Positions 6,153 to 12,801 of a stretch of 36,660 bases of DNA are shown here, piece after piece; position 1 is the first letter of the stretch, and each line of letters begins with the position of its first letter. The position numbers were made by a program, and so were the translations under genes. Source of the stretch: a virus; the UHGV virus genome UHGV-0183637; one strand, given 5' to 3'. Below the pieces are notes generated by a model. That model did not search any database. It was not told the DNA's origin and was given only the letters and a program-made list of their open reading frames with translations.

Positions 6153-6797
6153 ATGACGACTGAAAATAAAGTTAAGCAATATACAAAAAATAAAGTGCAG
6201 GAAGGCTACTGGGTTGATGCCCGTGGTGTGATGACGCCTGAAAGTCTTATCAAAGATATTGACCGCGACCGTGAGCAGTTGGTCGGTGAGCTTGTGGAGA
6301 TGGTGATTGCTGCCTCCGCCTCACTGCGTGAACTGAAACTGCGTGCGTTTGGTGATATTCAGGCATTTATTGACCTGTCAGCGGAGAAATACGGCGCTGT
6401 GAAAGGCGGTAAAAAAGGGAATATCACGCTTTACAGCTTTGACGGGCGTTACAAGATTCAGCGCGCCATGCAGGACCGTATTGCGCTTGATGAACGCATT
6501 CAGACCGCGAAGGCACTGATTGATGACTGCCTGGCTGACTGGACGGAAGGTGCACGCCCAGAAATCAAAGCCATCATCAGTGAGGCATTCAGCACGGACA
6601 AGGAAGGCAACATTAACACCGGGCGCGTTCTGGCTCTGCGTCGCCTCGAAATTGAGGACGAACGCTGGAATAACGCCATGACGCTGATTGGTGAAGCCGT
6701 CCAGGTAATTGGCAGCAGAAGTTATATCCGCGTGTATGAGCGCGTCGGTGATTCTGCTGAATACCGCGCAATCCCGCTTGATATTGCAGGGGTCTAA
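6153..6797 (+). CDS. Conserved Mu-like early-region protein (possibly DUF3164-like)
   Basis: 214 aa, balanced composition, same strand and position as Mu semi-essential early genes. Family assignment is from memory only and is tentative. Confidence 0.65.
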   Translation: MTTENKVKQYTKNKVQEGYWVDARGVMTPESLIKDIDRDREQLVGELVEMVIAASASLRELKLRAFGDIQAFIDLSAEKYGAVKGGKKGNITLYSFDGRYKIQRAMQDRIALDERIQTAKALIDDCLADWTEGARPEIKAIISEAFSTDKEGNINTGRVLALRRLEIEDERWNNAMTLIGEAVQVIGSRSYIRVYERVGDSAEYRAIPLDIAGV

Positions 6798-6798
6798 C

Positions 6799-7032
6799 AT
6801 GCATCAGGATATCAAAGAGTACAGAGCCGGGAACCGTTGCGCGGCGTATTCGCTGGGCGCGTCCAGAGCAGAACAACGCGGCGATTATGCCGAGGCTGAA
6901 AAGCTGTGGCGTAAGGCAGCGCAAAGTCCATGTAGTACCCTGCGCCGCATCTGGGCGGAACATCGTGCAGAGTTCTGTGCTAATGCTCACCTGAAAGGAT
7001 GGAAGCCGATTCATGAACGCGAAACGCTTTAA
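6799..7032 (+). CDS. Hypothetical small protein
   Basis: ATG at 6799 directly after the stop of the previous gene; MHQDIKEYRAGNRCAAYSLGASRAEQRGDYAEAEKLWRKAAQ... The track ORF 6709..7032 extends upstream through the previous gene in another frame. Confidence 0.5.
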   Translation: MHQDIKEYRAGNRCAAYSLGASRAEQRGDYAEAEKLWRKAAQSPCSTLRRIWAEHRAEFCANAHLKGWKPIHERETL

Positions 7033-7204
7033 TCAGTTATATCCGCCTGGTACTCGTTTCATGCACATTGCACATCAGGCGGTGCGTGGTGGTCGGGTGG
7101 TAAAAACTGTTGCACCGGCCAGAGATTTTAAATGTGGTTGTGTGGTTGAAATTAATGTCGAGCCTTATTTCGTTAAAGTCGAGACACTGAAAGCAGCGCA
7201 TTAA
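7013..7204 (+). CDS. Hypothetical small protein
   Basis: 63 aa; overlaps the previous ORF by 20 nt. Confidence 0.4.
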   Translation: MNAKRFNQLYPPGTRFMHIAHQAVRGGRVVKTVAPARDFKCGCVVEINVEPYFVKVETLKAAH

Positions 7205-7234
7205 TTTAATTCAATTTTAATTGTTATTTAAAAC

Positions 7235-7267
7235 AGGCGTAAACCCGCCGGGGCTGACTTACGCCTG
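7235..7267 (+). repeat. Conserved intergenic stem-loop H1 (GGCGTAA...TTACGCC) followed by TGAAT
   Basis: CAGGCGTAAacccgccggggctgacTTACGCCTG then TGAATCTGGAG and the start codon. Near-identical copy at 8311, structurally equivalent copy at 7693. Confidence 0.55.
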
Positions 7268-7284
7268 AATCTGGAGAAATGAAA

Positions 7285-7671
7285 ATGAGTGTTACCGTTA
7301 TCAATGAAATGCTCGGGCGTACATTTAAAGAAGTAGTTAAGACTGAAAACGATGAACTTGTTTTTCGTGGTGATTATTCCCGGGGAGTATGGGGAACCGT
7401 GTTTACATTTTTCCACTTTCAGGAAGGCTGCGAAAAAGTCTGGATTGAGGACATCGTCGGAGACCTTGACGACCTGAAAGATGAACCGCTGACAGAGGCT
7501 GAAGTGGTTACCGAAGAATGTGATGTCGGGGAAGGTCATCAGACATGGAGTTTCTTTAAGTTCGGCACATCAAAAGGCTGTGTAGTCGTCAGATGGTGCG
7601 GTGAGAGCGAGGGCTTTTATTCTGAGTGCGTTTCACTGAAGCGGGAATTAACTGACGTCTTCGATTTTTAA
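7285..7671 (+). CDS. Hypothetical protein, AT-rich accessory gene
   Basis: ATG at 7285 (alternative 7279), 8 nt after GGAG; 128 aa; lower GC than the surrounding phage genes; no recognisable family. Confidence 0.6.
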   Translation: MSVTVINEMLGRTFKEVVKTENDELVFRGDYSRGVWGTVFTFFHFQEGCEKVWIEDIVGDLDDLKDEPLTEAEVVTEECDVGEGHQTWSFFKFGTSKGCVVVRWCGESEGFYSECVSLKRELTDVFDF

Positions 7672-7692
7672 CTCTGACTTCGTTTTTTTATG

Positions 7693-7715
7693 GCGCAGGT
7701 AAACAGGTCTGCGCC
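7693..7715 (+). repeat. Conserved intergenic stem-loop H2 (GGCGCAG...CTGCGCC) followed by TGAAT
   Basis: GGCGCAGgtaaacaggtCTGCGCC then TGAATTAAGGGGA and ATG at 7736; stem sequence differs from H1/H3 but pairing is preserved. Confidence 0.5.
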
Positions 7716-7735
7716 TGAATTAAGGGGATTTGTAT

Positions 7736-8281
7736 ATGAAAGATAAAGTCTGGGAATTTATTGTTACTCCTGAAGGTTTTGCTGTCCGTTCATCTGGGAA
7801 GTTAACCAATGTAACGTTATGGGCGTCATCATTGCTGGGCCATCTGGGTGCACCTGGCGATTTTATGTATGTGGTACTTGATGCGCAGATTGCCGGGAAT
7901 GCTATGGCCAGTAAGGGGGCTTATATTCAGGGGGATTTGTTCGCCATGATGGCGAATGACACAGCCGCGCTGTATATCGCCACACGGAACATACTGACAA
8001 GAATATCCATGATGTCTGACTGTAAGGATATGGTAGACCTTGCATACATCCTTGAAGATGATTTGCTCACTATTTCAGGCGTGCAGGAATCCCTCCCGCG
8101 TCAGCTGCGGTTTATTGACCTGATGGAGTCATATAAAGATAAGCCTGATTTTTTTCAGATTCGATTCAGCGGGATGGAACTGCTGGATGAATATTATCCG
8201 CTGGATTCGATTGCCCGTGATGTGAAGGCGTTCGTAAAGTCTGTTGACCGTCATTACCGGAAAGCTGAACGTCGTAGTTAA
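7736..8281 (+). CDS. Hypothetical protein, AT-rich accessory gene
   Basis: ATG at 7736, 7 nt after AAGGGGA (track TTG start 7730); 181 aa; no recognisable family. Confidence 0.6.
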   Translation: MKDKVWEFIVTPEGFAVRSSGKLTNVTLWASSLLGHLGAPGDFMYVVLDAQIAGNAMASKGAYIQGDLFAMMANDTAALYIATRNILTRISMMSDCKDMVDLAYILEDDLLTISGVQESLPRQLRFIDLMESYKDKPDFFQIRFSGMELLDEYYPLDSIARDVKAFVKSVDRHYRKAERRS

Positions 8282-8310
8282 TAAGTCTGTTTTTAATTTT
8301 ATTTGTATAT

Positions 8311-8340
8311 GGCGTAAACCCGCCAGGGCTGGCTTACGCC
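8311..8340 (+). repeat. Conserved intergenic stem-loop H3 (GGCGTAA...TTACGCC) followed by TGAAT
   Basis: GGCGTAAacccgccagggctggcTTACGCC then TGAATCTGAGGAAG; near-identical to H1. Confidence 0.55.
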
Positions 8341-8419
8341 TGAATCTGAGGAAGTTTATTTATGAATATCGCCAAGCAAAAAAAATTCGCCCGCGAAATT
8401 AATCTGACAATCGTTTGTT

Positions 8420-8638
8420 TTAATCGTCTTGCGACCAGTTTTCAATCGACAGCAGATGTTCATCCAGCGCCGCAGCCAGAACGAACTCCCCACGTTCCTG
8501 AAGGCCGTGCTGGAAGTTGCGTAATTCAGAATCCAGGGCGCTGAGGTTCAGACAGCCATTTTCTGAAAGCTGTTTAACCAGAAAGCTCCACGCAGCTTTG
8601 TTAGCAGTAATTGCTGCCGCAATTTCATCATCAATCAT
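8420..8638 (-). CDS. Small acidic protein on the opposite strand (72 aa)
   Basis: Minus-strand ORF with AGGAG RBS about 7 nt upstream and host-like codon usage (CTG, GAA, GCG rich). 13 Asp/Glu versus 4 Lys/Arg, C-terminal ...IENWSQDD. One of only two minus-strand genes inside the prophage. Confidence 0.6.
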   Translation of the reverse strand: MIDDEIAAAITANKAAWSFLVKQLSENGCLNLSALDSELRNFQHGLQERGEFVLAAALDEHLLSIENWSQDD

Positions 8639-8726
8639 TTTTTAACTCCTGATTGGGCATGTTGGGGCAGCGATTATGACAAGTGTCTTGCGGTTATAAG
8701 TTGATCAAAAACAATGAGTTACAACC

Positions 8727-9437
8727 ATGAAAGATAAATACATTGCCAAAATCAAAAAACTGTTACGCCTTGCCAGAGGAACATCAAGCCCGGAAGAAGC
8801 CGCTAACGCTATTGCAAAAGCCCAGGCCTACATGCGCCAGCATGGCATCAGCGAAAACGACGCGGAATTGTTCGACATTCAGGAAGCTGCCAGCGCGGGT
8901 GCGCCGAGTGATGCCAGTACGCCGCCGCGTTATATGCACATCCTGTGTGACCTGGTCTGTAAAGCCTTCGGTGTCGAGTGTTACATCTCCGGCGAATACC
9001 GGGCTTCTGGTTCACTCAAACGTTACGTGCGTTTTTATGGTCCTGACAGCCGCCCGGAGATTGCGGCCTACGCGTTTGATGTGCTTTCCCGTCAGATGAT
9101 GGCTGAACGTAAAAAATATCAGGATAAACACTGCAAACGTTGTGGTCCGTCCACGCGGGTAGCCCGTGGCGACCAGTTCTGCGAAGGCTGGGTCTTTGGT
9201 GCCCGTGATGTCATTGCGGTGTATGACGTCTCCCCGGAAGAAAAAAGCCGCCTTGAGCTTTACAGAAAGAACCTGCACAGCACTAAGGGGTTGCGCGACG
9301 GGGATATGCGCACAGCTAAAGCGTGCCGGGGTGCAGAGTTTGCCGCTACAGCCGGTTTTATCGCCGGGAAAAACGCCAGGCTGCATCAGGGGGTTAATGG
9401 TCAGAGCAACAGACCGCTGGCACTGGGGAGGGTGTAA
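8727..9437 (+). CDS. DUF2786-like phage protein
   Basis: 236 aa; N-terminus KIKKLLRLARGTSSPEEAANAIAKAQAYMRQHGI resembles the conserved N-terminal helix of DUF2786-family phage proteins (from memory). Confidence 0.65.
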   Translation: MKDKYIAKIKKLLRLARGTSSPEEAANAIAKAQAYMRQHGISENDAELFDIQEAASAGAPSDASTPPRYMHILCDLVCKAFGVECYISGEYRASGSLKRYVRFYGPDSRPEIAAYAFDVLSRQMMAERKKYQDKHCKRCGPSTRVARGDQFCEGWVFGARDVIAVYDVSPEEKSRLELYRKNLHSTKGLRDGDMRTAKACRGAEFAATAGFIAGKNARLHQGVNGQSNRPLALGRV

Positions 9438-12245: not shown

Positions 12246-12270
12246 CCCCTGCCATGCAGGGGATTTTTTT
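12246..12270 (+). terminator. Rho-independent terminator
   Basis: CCCCTGC-cat-GCAGGGG stem-loop followed by ATTTTTTT. Confidence 0.7.
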
Positions 12271-12275
12271 GTGGT

Positions 12276-12304
12276 CTGTACAGGCGATCATGTATGGCTA
12301 TAAT
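12276..12304 (+). promoter_or_regulatory. Putative promoter of the Mor/C-family gene (-10 TATAAT at 12299..12304, weak -35)
   Basis: Perfect TATAAT hexamer 30 nt upstream of the start codon; no good TTGACA 17 bp upstream, consistent with an activator-dependent promoter. Confidence 0.35.
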
Positions 12305-12333: not shown

Positions 12334-12801
12334 ATGCAGACCTTCAGTGAAACAGATCTTCGCGATGCGCAGGCACTGCTGCCCGATTCCGTGCAGCAAC
12401 TGATTAGCGTGATTGGCTTCCCCGCCCTGACCCGGTTAATCCGTTCTTTTGGTGGCGTGACGTTAAGCGGTAAAACCGGCGCACACGCCGAACGAACCGG
12501 CGGTGTCCATGCCCTGTTACATGATGTGCTGACCGAAGACGAAATCAACAAACTGATCCGCTTTCTTGGCGGTGCACCGTTTTACATTCCCCGTTGCGAT
12601 CATGCGTTACGTGCCCTGCGTAACACCCGTTTTATGGCTGATTTACAGCAGCATGTAAAAGACGGATGCTCACACCGGCAGGCGCTGGCACTGCTCTGTC
12701 CCCGTTACGGGATTTCAGACCGGTATGCATGGCAACTGATACACCGACGACAAAAACAGACTTCGCTGAAAAGCCCCACCCAGGTGGGGCTTTTTGATTA
12801 A
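12334..12801 (+). CDS. Mor/C-family transcriptional activator
   Basis: 155 aa; FLGGAPFYIPRCDHALRALRN matches the GG..YIPR signature of Mu Mor/C, with a C-terminal HTH (YGISDRYAWQLIHRR). GGAGA RBS 7 nt upstream. A GC-rich stem-loop plus T-run overlaps the 3' end. Confidence 0.8.
   Translation: MQTFSETDLRDAQALLPDSVQQLISVIGFPALTRLIRSFGGVTLSGKTGAHAERTGGVHALLHDVLTEDEINKLIRFLGGAPFYIPRCDHALRALRNTRFMADLQQHVKDGCSHRQALALLCPRYGISDRYAWQLIHRRQKQTSLKSPTQVGLFD

Follow-up and report, generated by a model that had tools for sequence, protein, structure and literature searches.

The DNA considered here (the window) is the virus genome UHGV-0183637, 36,660 nucleotides (nt) long, which is a Mu-like transposable prophage. 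Inside its plus-strand early operon lie three small hairpins, H1, H2, and H3, which we report as copies of an intercistronic hairpin element that is conserved in the Mu-type transposable phages of Enterobacterales. The closest complete-genome relatives of the window are Escherichia coli prophages, 94.6% identical across positions 6900-8700, and the RefSeq annotation of such a relative lists, in order, a repressor, a Ner-like protein, a Mu-type transposase, a MuB-like ATPase, small open reading frames (ORFs), and DUF3164, then an ANR-family protein, a 63-amino-acid (aa) protein, DUF7448, a 181-aa protein, DUF2786, and further genes, and finally GemA, Mor, the genes for lysis, and a terminase. 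Judged by its DUF3164, the window has its nearest sequenced phages in the BcepMu, phiE255, and B3 type and not in Mu proper. The locus is laid out below; RBS stands for ribosome-binding site, related loci carry L numbers, and bit scores come from a covariance model built from 26 family variants, its training being based in part on the window copies.

7013..7204, plus strand: 63-aa early gene, conserved (phrog_5591, without a Pfam match); its homologues always have the primary hairpin copy on their 3' side
7205..7235, plus strand: AT-rich 5' flank of H1, TTTAATTCAATTTTAATTGTTATTTAAAACA
7236-7265, plus strand: H1, primary copy, GGCGTAAACCCGCCGGGGCTGACTTACGCC; 7-bp lower stem GGCGTAA/TTACGCC, imperfect upper part, CGGG apex; 69.1 bits
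7266..7284, plus strand: TGAAT and RBS CTGGAGAAATGAAA of the DUF7448 gene; similarity between relatives breaks at the boundary of CGCC and TGAAT
7285..7671, plus strand: cassette gene 1, DUF7448 protein, 128 aa from the ATG at 7285 (PF24240, E 1.4e-15); an upstream in-frame ATG lies at 7279
7672..7691, plus strand: T-rich 5' flank of H2
7692-7715, plus strand: H2, variant copy that moves with the DUF7448 gene before it, GGCGCAGGTAAACAGGTCTGCGCC; stem GGCGCAG(G)/(T)CTGCGCC, loop TAAACAGG; 47.3 bits
7716..7735, plus strand: TGAAT and RBS TAAGGGGATTTGTAT of the 181-aa gene
7736..8281, plus strand: cassette gene 2, 181-aa protein (phrog_7741, function not assigned)
8282..8310, plus strand: AT-rich 5' flank of H3, part of a 72-nt direct repeat in common with the H1 region
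8311-8340, plus strand: H3, near-duplicate of H1, GGCGTAAACCCGCCAGGGCTGGCTTACGCC; 67.8 bits
8341..8361, plus strand: TGAAT and RBS CTGAGGAAGTTTATTT before the ATG at 8362
8362..8544, plus strand: 60-aa ORF after H3, no family match, its coding status doubtful because a better-looking minus-strand ORF overlaps it
8727..9437, plus strand: DUF2786/DUF7168 gene, the next conserved early gene, directly after the hairpin in L004, L016, L020, and L022

All three hairpins share one layout. An AT-rich tract starts at the stop codon of the preceding gene, the hairpin follows, TGAAT comes immediately 3' of it (7266-7270, 7716-7720, and 8341-8345), and a Shine-Dalgarno-like purine run then leads to an ATG 19-21 nt from the stem (7285, 7736, and 8362); the starts at 7285 and 7736 match the RefSeq starts in the 94.6% identical relative. 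A first-pass annotation of this DNA had described three stem-loops before consecutive early genes, each followed by TGAAT, an RBS, and a start codon. The hairpins are real, being seen in the sequence and recovered by RNAfold; the early genes are those of a Mu-like prophage; and the TGAAT arrangement holds for every window copy (family-wide, TGAAT is found in 54 of 85 unique instances). H1 and H3, described there as nearly identical, differ at 2 of 30 positions (28 identical), and both lie within a 72-nt direct repeat, D1 (7207-7278 and 8282-8353, 79% identical). Relative to both, H2 has compensatory changes in two pairs, T-A to C-G and A-T to G-C. The lower stems are GC-rich, 7-9 bp long, with energies of -12 to -17 kcal/mol, that of H1 reaching 9 bp through a CA/TG extension (7234-7267), and the RBS is unpaired in the minimum-free-energy folds. 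The RNA folding that the first-pass annotation had proposed as a check does give the expected hairpins; the z-scores with flanks are modest (-2.3, -1.8, and -0.4 for H1, H2, and H3), so folding energy alone is unconvincing. It is the covariance-model hits, the conservation in relatives, and the covariation of the stem that place the hairpins beyond chance. In the 36.6-kb window, the covariance model finds exactly three plus-strand sites, at 69, 68, and 47 bits, and the next plus-strand match scores 12 bits.

The family comprises at least 39 distinct hairpin sequences, and H1-H3 all display its defining features, i.e., an AT-rich 5' flank, a GGCG...CGCC stem, CRGG, TRAWT, an RBS, and a place at an early-operon border. 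The 5' flank reads roughly CTTTTAAWTAT in consensus. The lower stem, of about 7 bp, begins with GGCG and closes with CGCC, the upper stem is imperfect, and the element measures 24-31 nt in all; the longest helices have 7-10 contiguous pairs, or about 12 in total with mismatches. In every hairpin type, the G-rich apical CRGG is offset by 12-13 nt from the 5' G, and an apex of the form GUC-AGGG/AGGA-GAY is common to Mu, SfMu, and types B and D, while their lower stems differ. After the hairpin comes TRAWT and then the RBS, which begins 5-12 nt 3' of the hairpin; instances without TGAAT have TGAAA, TAAAT, AAAAT, TGATT, and others at this place.

Pairs 5-7 of the lower stem covary, with GGCGTAA/TTACGCC in most variants, GGCGCAG/CTGCGCC in H2, and GGCGCGA/TCGCGCC in Mu. 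In a 26-sequence alignment, 92.6% of the lower-stem cells are paired, vs 24-44% with the partner slid, and at pair 5, 14 sequences have U-A, 10 have C-G, and 2 have U-G. None of 500 shuffles reaches the observed covariation score, and RNAalifold independently predicts the GGCGY stem. We are highly confident that the hairpins form a conserved, structure-selected family. The first-pass annotation had seen in H2 a sign of selection on structure rather than sequence and had named a covariance search across related prophages as a check: the hairpins are conserved in related elements, their stem covaries, and compensatory changes in H2 and several other stem types speak for selection on pairing; the exclusion of sequence was too strong, given that GGCG...CGCC, CRGG, the AT-rich 5' flank, and TRAWT are conserved as well. 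One variation of the stem was noted in a Morganella-type group (L035, L037, L149, L161, L191, L204, and L205), where the 5' flank ends in ATTCA and TGAAT joins a longer, 13-bp palindrome, ATTCAGGCGTAAA...TTTACGCCTGAAT; of this palindrome, H1 has only CA/TG, and H2 and H3 have nothing.

The element occupies a fixed place in relatives. We gathered 80 viral contigs through their DUF3164 protein (56-97% identity), and wherever such a contig, down to about 56% identity, also encodes a 63-aa homologue, a GGCGTAA...TTACGCC hairpin lies on the plus strand about 430 nt 3' of DUF3164. In at least 50 related loci, the covariance model matches the plus strand only, at a single syntenic position. The hairpin stands 20-39 nt past the stop codon of the 63-aa homologue in 53 of 53 loci, and 31 more loci, including Morganella, Serratia, Pantoea, and Erwinia genomes, have it likewise; the 63-aa homologues so followed span 34-100% aa identity, and a relative may carry one, two, or three copies of the hairpin. 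It is among the best-conserved 30-nt segments, with 87-97% nucleotide identity vs 50-62% over the surrounding 1.2 kb, and it neighbors proteins that are 34-66% identical between phages. The 63-aa protein of L026-L028, for example, is only 34-36% identical to that of the window, yet only 1 of the 30 hairpin positions departs from H1.

In 5426 complete E. coli genomes searched by BLAST, the H1 region occurs in 59, at one to four places each, these being the genomes with the prophage, and genomes lacking the prophage have no copy. One carrier of the prophage is enteropathogenic E. coli E2348/69 (NC_011601.1 near 2,721,835). Membership in the host repetitive extragenic palindromic (REP) or bacterial interspersed mosaic element class was rejected on this restricted occurrence and the lack of dispersed host copies. 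A near-identity search of 3.5 kb against sequenced phages found no match, and a distant search with the H1 region gave weak matches only, probably due to chance. Most matches of a loose IUPAC pattern in viral contigs were also chance ones, inside coding sequence; the true members were those with the AT-rich 5' flank, all adjoining a homologue of the 63-aa gene. No family of Rfam 15 matches the window at gathering thresholds, and when hits up to an E-value of 10 are admitted, the top ones in 7000-8800 score 20.3 and 17.4 bits vs gathering thresholds of 105 and 56.3. The element was not found in Pseudomonas- and Burkholderia-type relatives that have no 63-aa gene. Three GC-rich, Pseudomonas-type loci (L077, L080, and L084) have early regions with two to three hairpins of the same stem, AGCCCCGC...GCGGGGCT, and differing loops, some of them directly before an RBS and start codon; these may be an analogous repeated intergenic hairpin in another host group.

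Phage Mu itself has a copy, at 6368-6397 between gam and gene 11 (cttttaattatGGCGCGATACGTCAGGAGATTGCTCGCGCCtgaaac...GAGGAA...ATG; 38.9 bits), where it occupies the only large gap of the Mu early operon; the curated Mu record has no annotation there. The element is also present in D108, SfMu, Yersinia Mu-like phages, and many Mu-type prophages. Mu has no 63-aa gene, and its hairpin follows gam. SfMu and Mu have the hairpin in common and Gam proteins that are 94% identical, and the next two genes are unrelated. The primary copy stands where the conserved early genes end and the variable accessory region begins, after the 63-aa gene here and after gam in Mu. Two neighboring observations concern other hairpins. 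At 8193-8212 of Mu (L237), a second hairpin, aaattcaGGCGGTGTTGCAGCACCGCC, sits just 5' of the gemA RBS, with a family-like 5' flank and GGCG/CGCC ends, without the apical CRGG, and unscored by the covariance model. In L298, L301, and L305, whose Gam is about 62-64% identical to Mu Gam, a different hairpin lies just 3' of gam, with a conserved loop (TTAAACCTAG, TTAAATCTAG, and TTAAACATAG) and covarying stems (TGGCG/CGCCA vs CAGCCCG/CGGGCTG), and a post-gam hairpin may be a wider feature with lineage-specific loops.

Because the remaining intergenic junctions of the early operon are tight or overlapping, the hairpin spacers stand out, and what stands between them changes from phage to phage. Extra copies of the element flank single accessory genes, the unit (RBS, gene, AT-rich spacer, and hairpin in this order) being present, absent, or swapped as a whole; the DUF7448 and 181-aa genes are such cassettes, present in some relatives and absent in others. 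The arrangements found were as follows (H, hairpin).

H-DUF7448-H-181aa-H: window, L001, L005, L009
H-DUF7448-H-181aa-H-DUF2786: L004
H-181aa-H: L002, L003, L012, L018, L019
H-60aa ORF: L006-L008, L011, L013-L015, L017
H-DUF2786: L016, L020, L022
H-DUF7448-H(type E variant)-DUF2786: L021
H-181aa-H-other gene: L010

In relatives that have no DUF7448 gene, the intact type-A hairpin runs directly into the TGAAT and RBS of the 181-aa gene, which places the junction between CGCC and TGAAT. The type-E hairpin moves with the DUF7448 gene upstream of it, whatever gene comes next (L021 has a different 3' gene). An independent three-copy array in L124 has partly different genes and is bounded by a direct repeat of at least 65 nt. 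In total, about 19 unrelated gene families were found 3' of the element, and 120 of 137 loci keep the single primary copy without an array.

Breakpoints were collected in two sets of pairs, the first with homologous upstream and unrelated downstream sequence and the second the reverse; this selection does not itself push breaks to hairpin edges. In the first set, 486 of 522 pairs lose similarity 0-9 nt from the 3' edge of the hairpin (median 3 nt), and in the second, all 121 pairs lose it 0-9 nt from the 5' edge. The clearest property of the hairpins, which goes beyond the first-pass annotation, is that they are exact cassette and mosaic junctions in a family that includes phage Mu, and as a general property of the element, we consider the junction role very probable. 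A junction of another kind was seen in L010 (3342-3800), where the gene after the second hairpin has the RBS and first six codons (MKDKVW) of the 181-aa gene and is unrelated thereafter; this recombination junction lies just inside the coding region and not at the hairpin.

The element is a conserved intercistronic hairpin and at the same time a module boundary. As an RNA, it would punctuate the plus-strand early polycistronic mRNA as a stable stem-loop between single-stranded A/U-rich segments (CUUUUAAUUAU upstream and URAAU downstream). An RNase E-type endonuclease would cut in the A/U-rich flanks, and the hairpin would cap the RNA end left by the cleavage, by which the stability and expression of the conserved upstream message would be uncoupled from those of the accessory cistron with its unpaired RBS. 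RNase E prefers A/U-rich single strands beside stem-loops, and the flanks of the element resemble such sites. As DNA, the element may be a preferred crossover patch for exchange between co-resident phages because its 24-31 nt are nearly identical among otherwise diverged phages, and recombination at it would insert, delete, or exchange "gene + hairpin" units, producing arrays bounded by direct repeats. A role in processing, stability, or translation, of the kind the first-pass annotation had named, is plausible and ranks first among the readings; the full statement, i.e., the processing and stability mechanism together with the crossover role, we offer tentatively, with somewhat less than even confidence.

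Known parallels are intercistronic processing and stability hairpins such as papBA, the REP of malEF, and the RNase III sites of the T7 early region. Like the element, these are stem-loops between cistrons with an adjoining A/U-rich single strand and without termination. The effect to be expected is a stability of the message that differs up- and downstream. Unlike such generic barriers, the element has a conserved apical motif, and it does not reach the length of a classical RNase III site; a T7-type RNase III site was accordingly rejected, the helices having at most about 12 imperfect pairs vs the roughly two helical turns (about 20 bp) of such sites.

Several observations weigh against this processing and crossover reading. 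The conserved CRGG at a fixed offset is needless for a generic decay barrier and suggests a specific partner, for which the processing model has no candidate. With 7 bp plus 3-5 imperfect pairs (-9 to -19 kcal/mol), the stems are short and weak as an exonuclease barrier. At the junction of the DUF7448 cassette, H1 and H2 share only CGCCTGAAT (9 nt), and 9 nt is too short for ordinary RecA-dependent recombination. The breakpoint pairs are phylogenetically non-independent. We also sought the strand-specific G-U signature of an RNA helix among single-sided stem changes, and none was found: on the plus strand, G-U and A-C are balanced, roughly 4 to 4. The commonest hairpin type, moreover, folds better as minus-strand RNA (-18.2 vs -13.9 kcal/mol). 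Because of this balance and this folding preference, the data are no proof that it is the mRNA strand that folds; we infer so because the element keeps one orientation within an operon that is heavily transcribed.

The rival that survives best takes the element as a pure recombination linker with no expression role, acting as a homology patch or as a hairpin that provokes template switching or replication slippage, in line with the "linker sequence" idea of modular phage evolution. Breakpoints exactly at the hairpin edges and arrays bounded by direct repeats are what it predicts, identical hairpins beside very diverged genes suggest spread by exchange, and the wobble pairs without strand asymmetry also agree with it. 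Evolvability alone, however, does not explain the compensatory stem changes, nor are the conserved apex, the fixed orientation, and the nearly constant 19-21 nt to the next start explained, nor the retention of a single primary copy in loci without an array, and we consider the linker reading unlikely.

Another rival reading is an RNA operator, through which a trans-acting protein, either of the host (e.g., CsrA, Hfq, or ProQ) or an early protein of the phage, would control translation of the downstream accessory gene by reading the G-rich loop, maybe while bridging to the Shine-Dalgarno sequence. The fixed offset of CRGG in all types, the apex kept in Mu, SfMu, and types B and D despite differing lower stems, and the end of the hairpin 5-12 nt before the RBS agree with such an operator. 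CsrA sites contain GGA in a loop, and GGA does occur in the loops of Mu and of types B and D. The loops of all three window copies (CGGGGC, ACAGGU, and CAGGGC), however, have no GGA; a GGA is present near the Shine-Dalgarno sequence, and the window copies were rejected as CsrA sites. The 63-aa protein came up as a partner through its perfect co-occurrence with the hairpin, an idea weakened by Mu, which has the hairpin and not the gene, so that this protein is no universal partner, and by the independence of hairpin type from protein type (L026 has type A and L035 type C with similar proteins). An AlphaFold model of the 63-aa protein is too uncertain to use (predicted local distance difference test score 66). 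On balance, an RNA operator is unlikely.

We regard as quite unlikely a further, two-sided proposal, i.e., that the element belongs either to a dedicated cassette system of Mu and Mu-like phages, in which an activity recognizing the folded hairpin would insert and excise "gene + hairpin" units at a crossover between CGCC and TGAAT, or to a specific RNA-binding regulator as its operator. The former would be a functional analogue, in transposable phages, of attC recombination or of the mini-circles of promoter-early stem-loop (PeSL) cassettes; if the operator reading were true, an RNA-binding regulator of accessory, possibly anti-defense, genes would have been in Mu all along. PeSL cassettes belong to T4-type phages, where a conserved intergenic stem-loop motif marks the places at which accessory genes are shuffled (PMC2839356, PMC4122927). 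A PeSL joins a strong sigma-70 early promoter to a transcription-terminating stem-loop, and recombination from copy to copy is the mechanism proposed for the shuffling (PMC2839356, PMC4122927). By this comparison, PeSL is the closest analogue of the element, which is not itself a member: both are short conserved intergenic stem-loop motifs that recur among small accessory genes where the genome is plastic, and in both the insertions, deletions, and replacements between related phages are bounded by the motif. A PeSL contains a promoter, whereas our element has no promoter match, and its stem-loop is without a U-run; its copies lie within one long operon, mostly as a single copy per phage, in an unrelated phage group (transposable, Mu-type), and the mini-circles are a feature of PeSL.

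The likeness to integron attC is of another sort. There too, a promoterless ORF carries on its 3' side an imperfect inverted repeat capable of forming a hairpin, the sequences vary while the structure and outer bases are kept, the crossover is at an edge, and one to several cassettes stand in arrays of a single orientation. Unlike attC sites, our hairpins lack the core sites RYYYAAC/GTTRRRY by inspection and have GGCG...CGCC at the base, their arrays have at most three copies, and they measure 24-31 nt vs 57-141 nt. No integrase or tyrosine recombinase appears in the RefSeq annotation of the 94.6% relative over 17.8 kb around the array, where a Mu-type transposase, MuB ATPase, GemA, and Mor are listed. 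Membership in the attC class was rejected on the absent core sites and the lack of an annotated integrase. The attC consensus was also among those compared by eye and dismissed, together with boxA/nut, RfaH ops, dif, IHF, and LexA.

A non-canonical transcriptional signal, either a pause or partial terminator before the accessory genes or an antisense barrier against minus-strand morons, appears improbable. For it, one may cite the GC-rich stem at the essential/accessory border of the operon, the position of H3 80 nt downstream of a minus-strand ORF (8420-8638), and the sequence TGTTTTAAAT that follows H1 on the minus strand. Intrinsic termination on the plus strand was nevertheless rejected, as the GC-rich stem is followed by TGAATC or TGAATT and not by a U-run, and a terminator scan that found a canonical site at 12246-12262 does not flag H1-H3; the earlier opinion that these are unlikely to be intrinsic terminators holds. 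Plus-strand genes run on for about 4 kb beyond the hairpins, as far as that canonical terminator. The minus-strand tails of H2 and H3 are A-rich or mixed, and most loci have no nearby minus-strand gene. A promoter consensus scan found no plus-strand promoter-like site at or adjoining any of the three hairpins. The lambda nut site (boxA plus boxB) resembles the element as a short hairpin after a U-rich, boxA-like tract (TGCTTTTTAAAT vs rrn boxA TGCTCTTTAACAA) in an early operon; this resemblance is in AT-rich sequence and is weak in the window copies. To our knowledge, there is no N-like protein in Mu-like phages, and processive antitermination does not need a further site before each cassette.

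Least probable of all is that a dimeric phage regulator binds the element as duplex DNA, GGCGTAA and TTACGCC being its inverted half-sites. The inverted repeat with its conserved outer bases, extended in one group to ATTCAGGCG...CGCCTGAAT, would speak for such a site. Against it, the arm spacing varies from 10 to 17 nt, which favors a folded single strand, the half-sites change in a compensatory way while the center is conserved, and no further copy lies in the operator region or the rest of the window.

The element is previously undescribed, as far as the searchable literature goes, which largely excludes the older Mu literature and in which no description was found, and it is notable for its presence in Mu and for the precision of the breakpoints. 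Phage Mu is among the best-studied phages, and the element takes up the only sizeable non-coding gap of its early operon and is better conserved than the surrounding genes. It offers a handle on how transposable phages may express the "semi-essential" accessory region separately from the transposition genes, and it suggests a route by which Mu-like phages acquire and shuffle accessory genes. Such a region tends to house host-takeover and anti-defense genes, and the hairpin is a simple marker of its start and of cassette boundaries in Mu-like prophages of Enterobacterales.

A few features of the early region remain to be described. The canonical terminator-like hairpin at 12246-12262, CCCCTGCCATGCAGGGG, is followed by a run of seven T, and a good promoter-like site (TGTACA, 16 nt, TATAAT) lies 3' of it in the region to 12304, with the mor homologue (12334-12801) just downstream; within 12246-12304, the early operon probably ends and the middle transcript begins, an arrangement that we presume to be like t9.2 and Pm of Mu. 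Between H3 and the DUF2786 gene, antisense within the early operon, the minus-strand ORF at 8420-8638 encodes 72 aa, has a strong AGGAG RBS and an upstream extended -10-like sequence, and is annotated in the RefSeq relative (WP_000564495.1). It may be an independently expressed moron; in other relatives, it is 5'-truncated, and the plus-strand 60-aa ORF is annotated there instead. Finally, in the E. coli relative L004, an IS1A is inserted in the early region (1377-2074), between the small ORFs and DUF3164.

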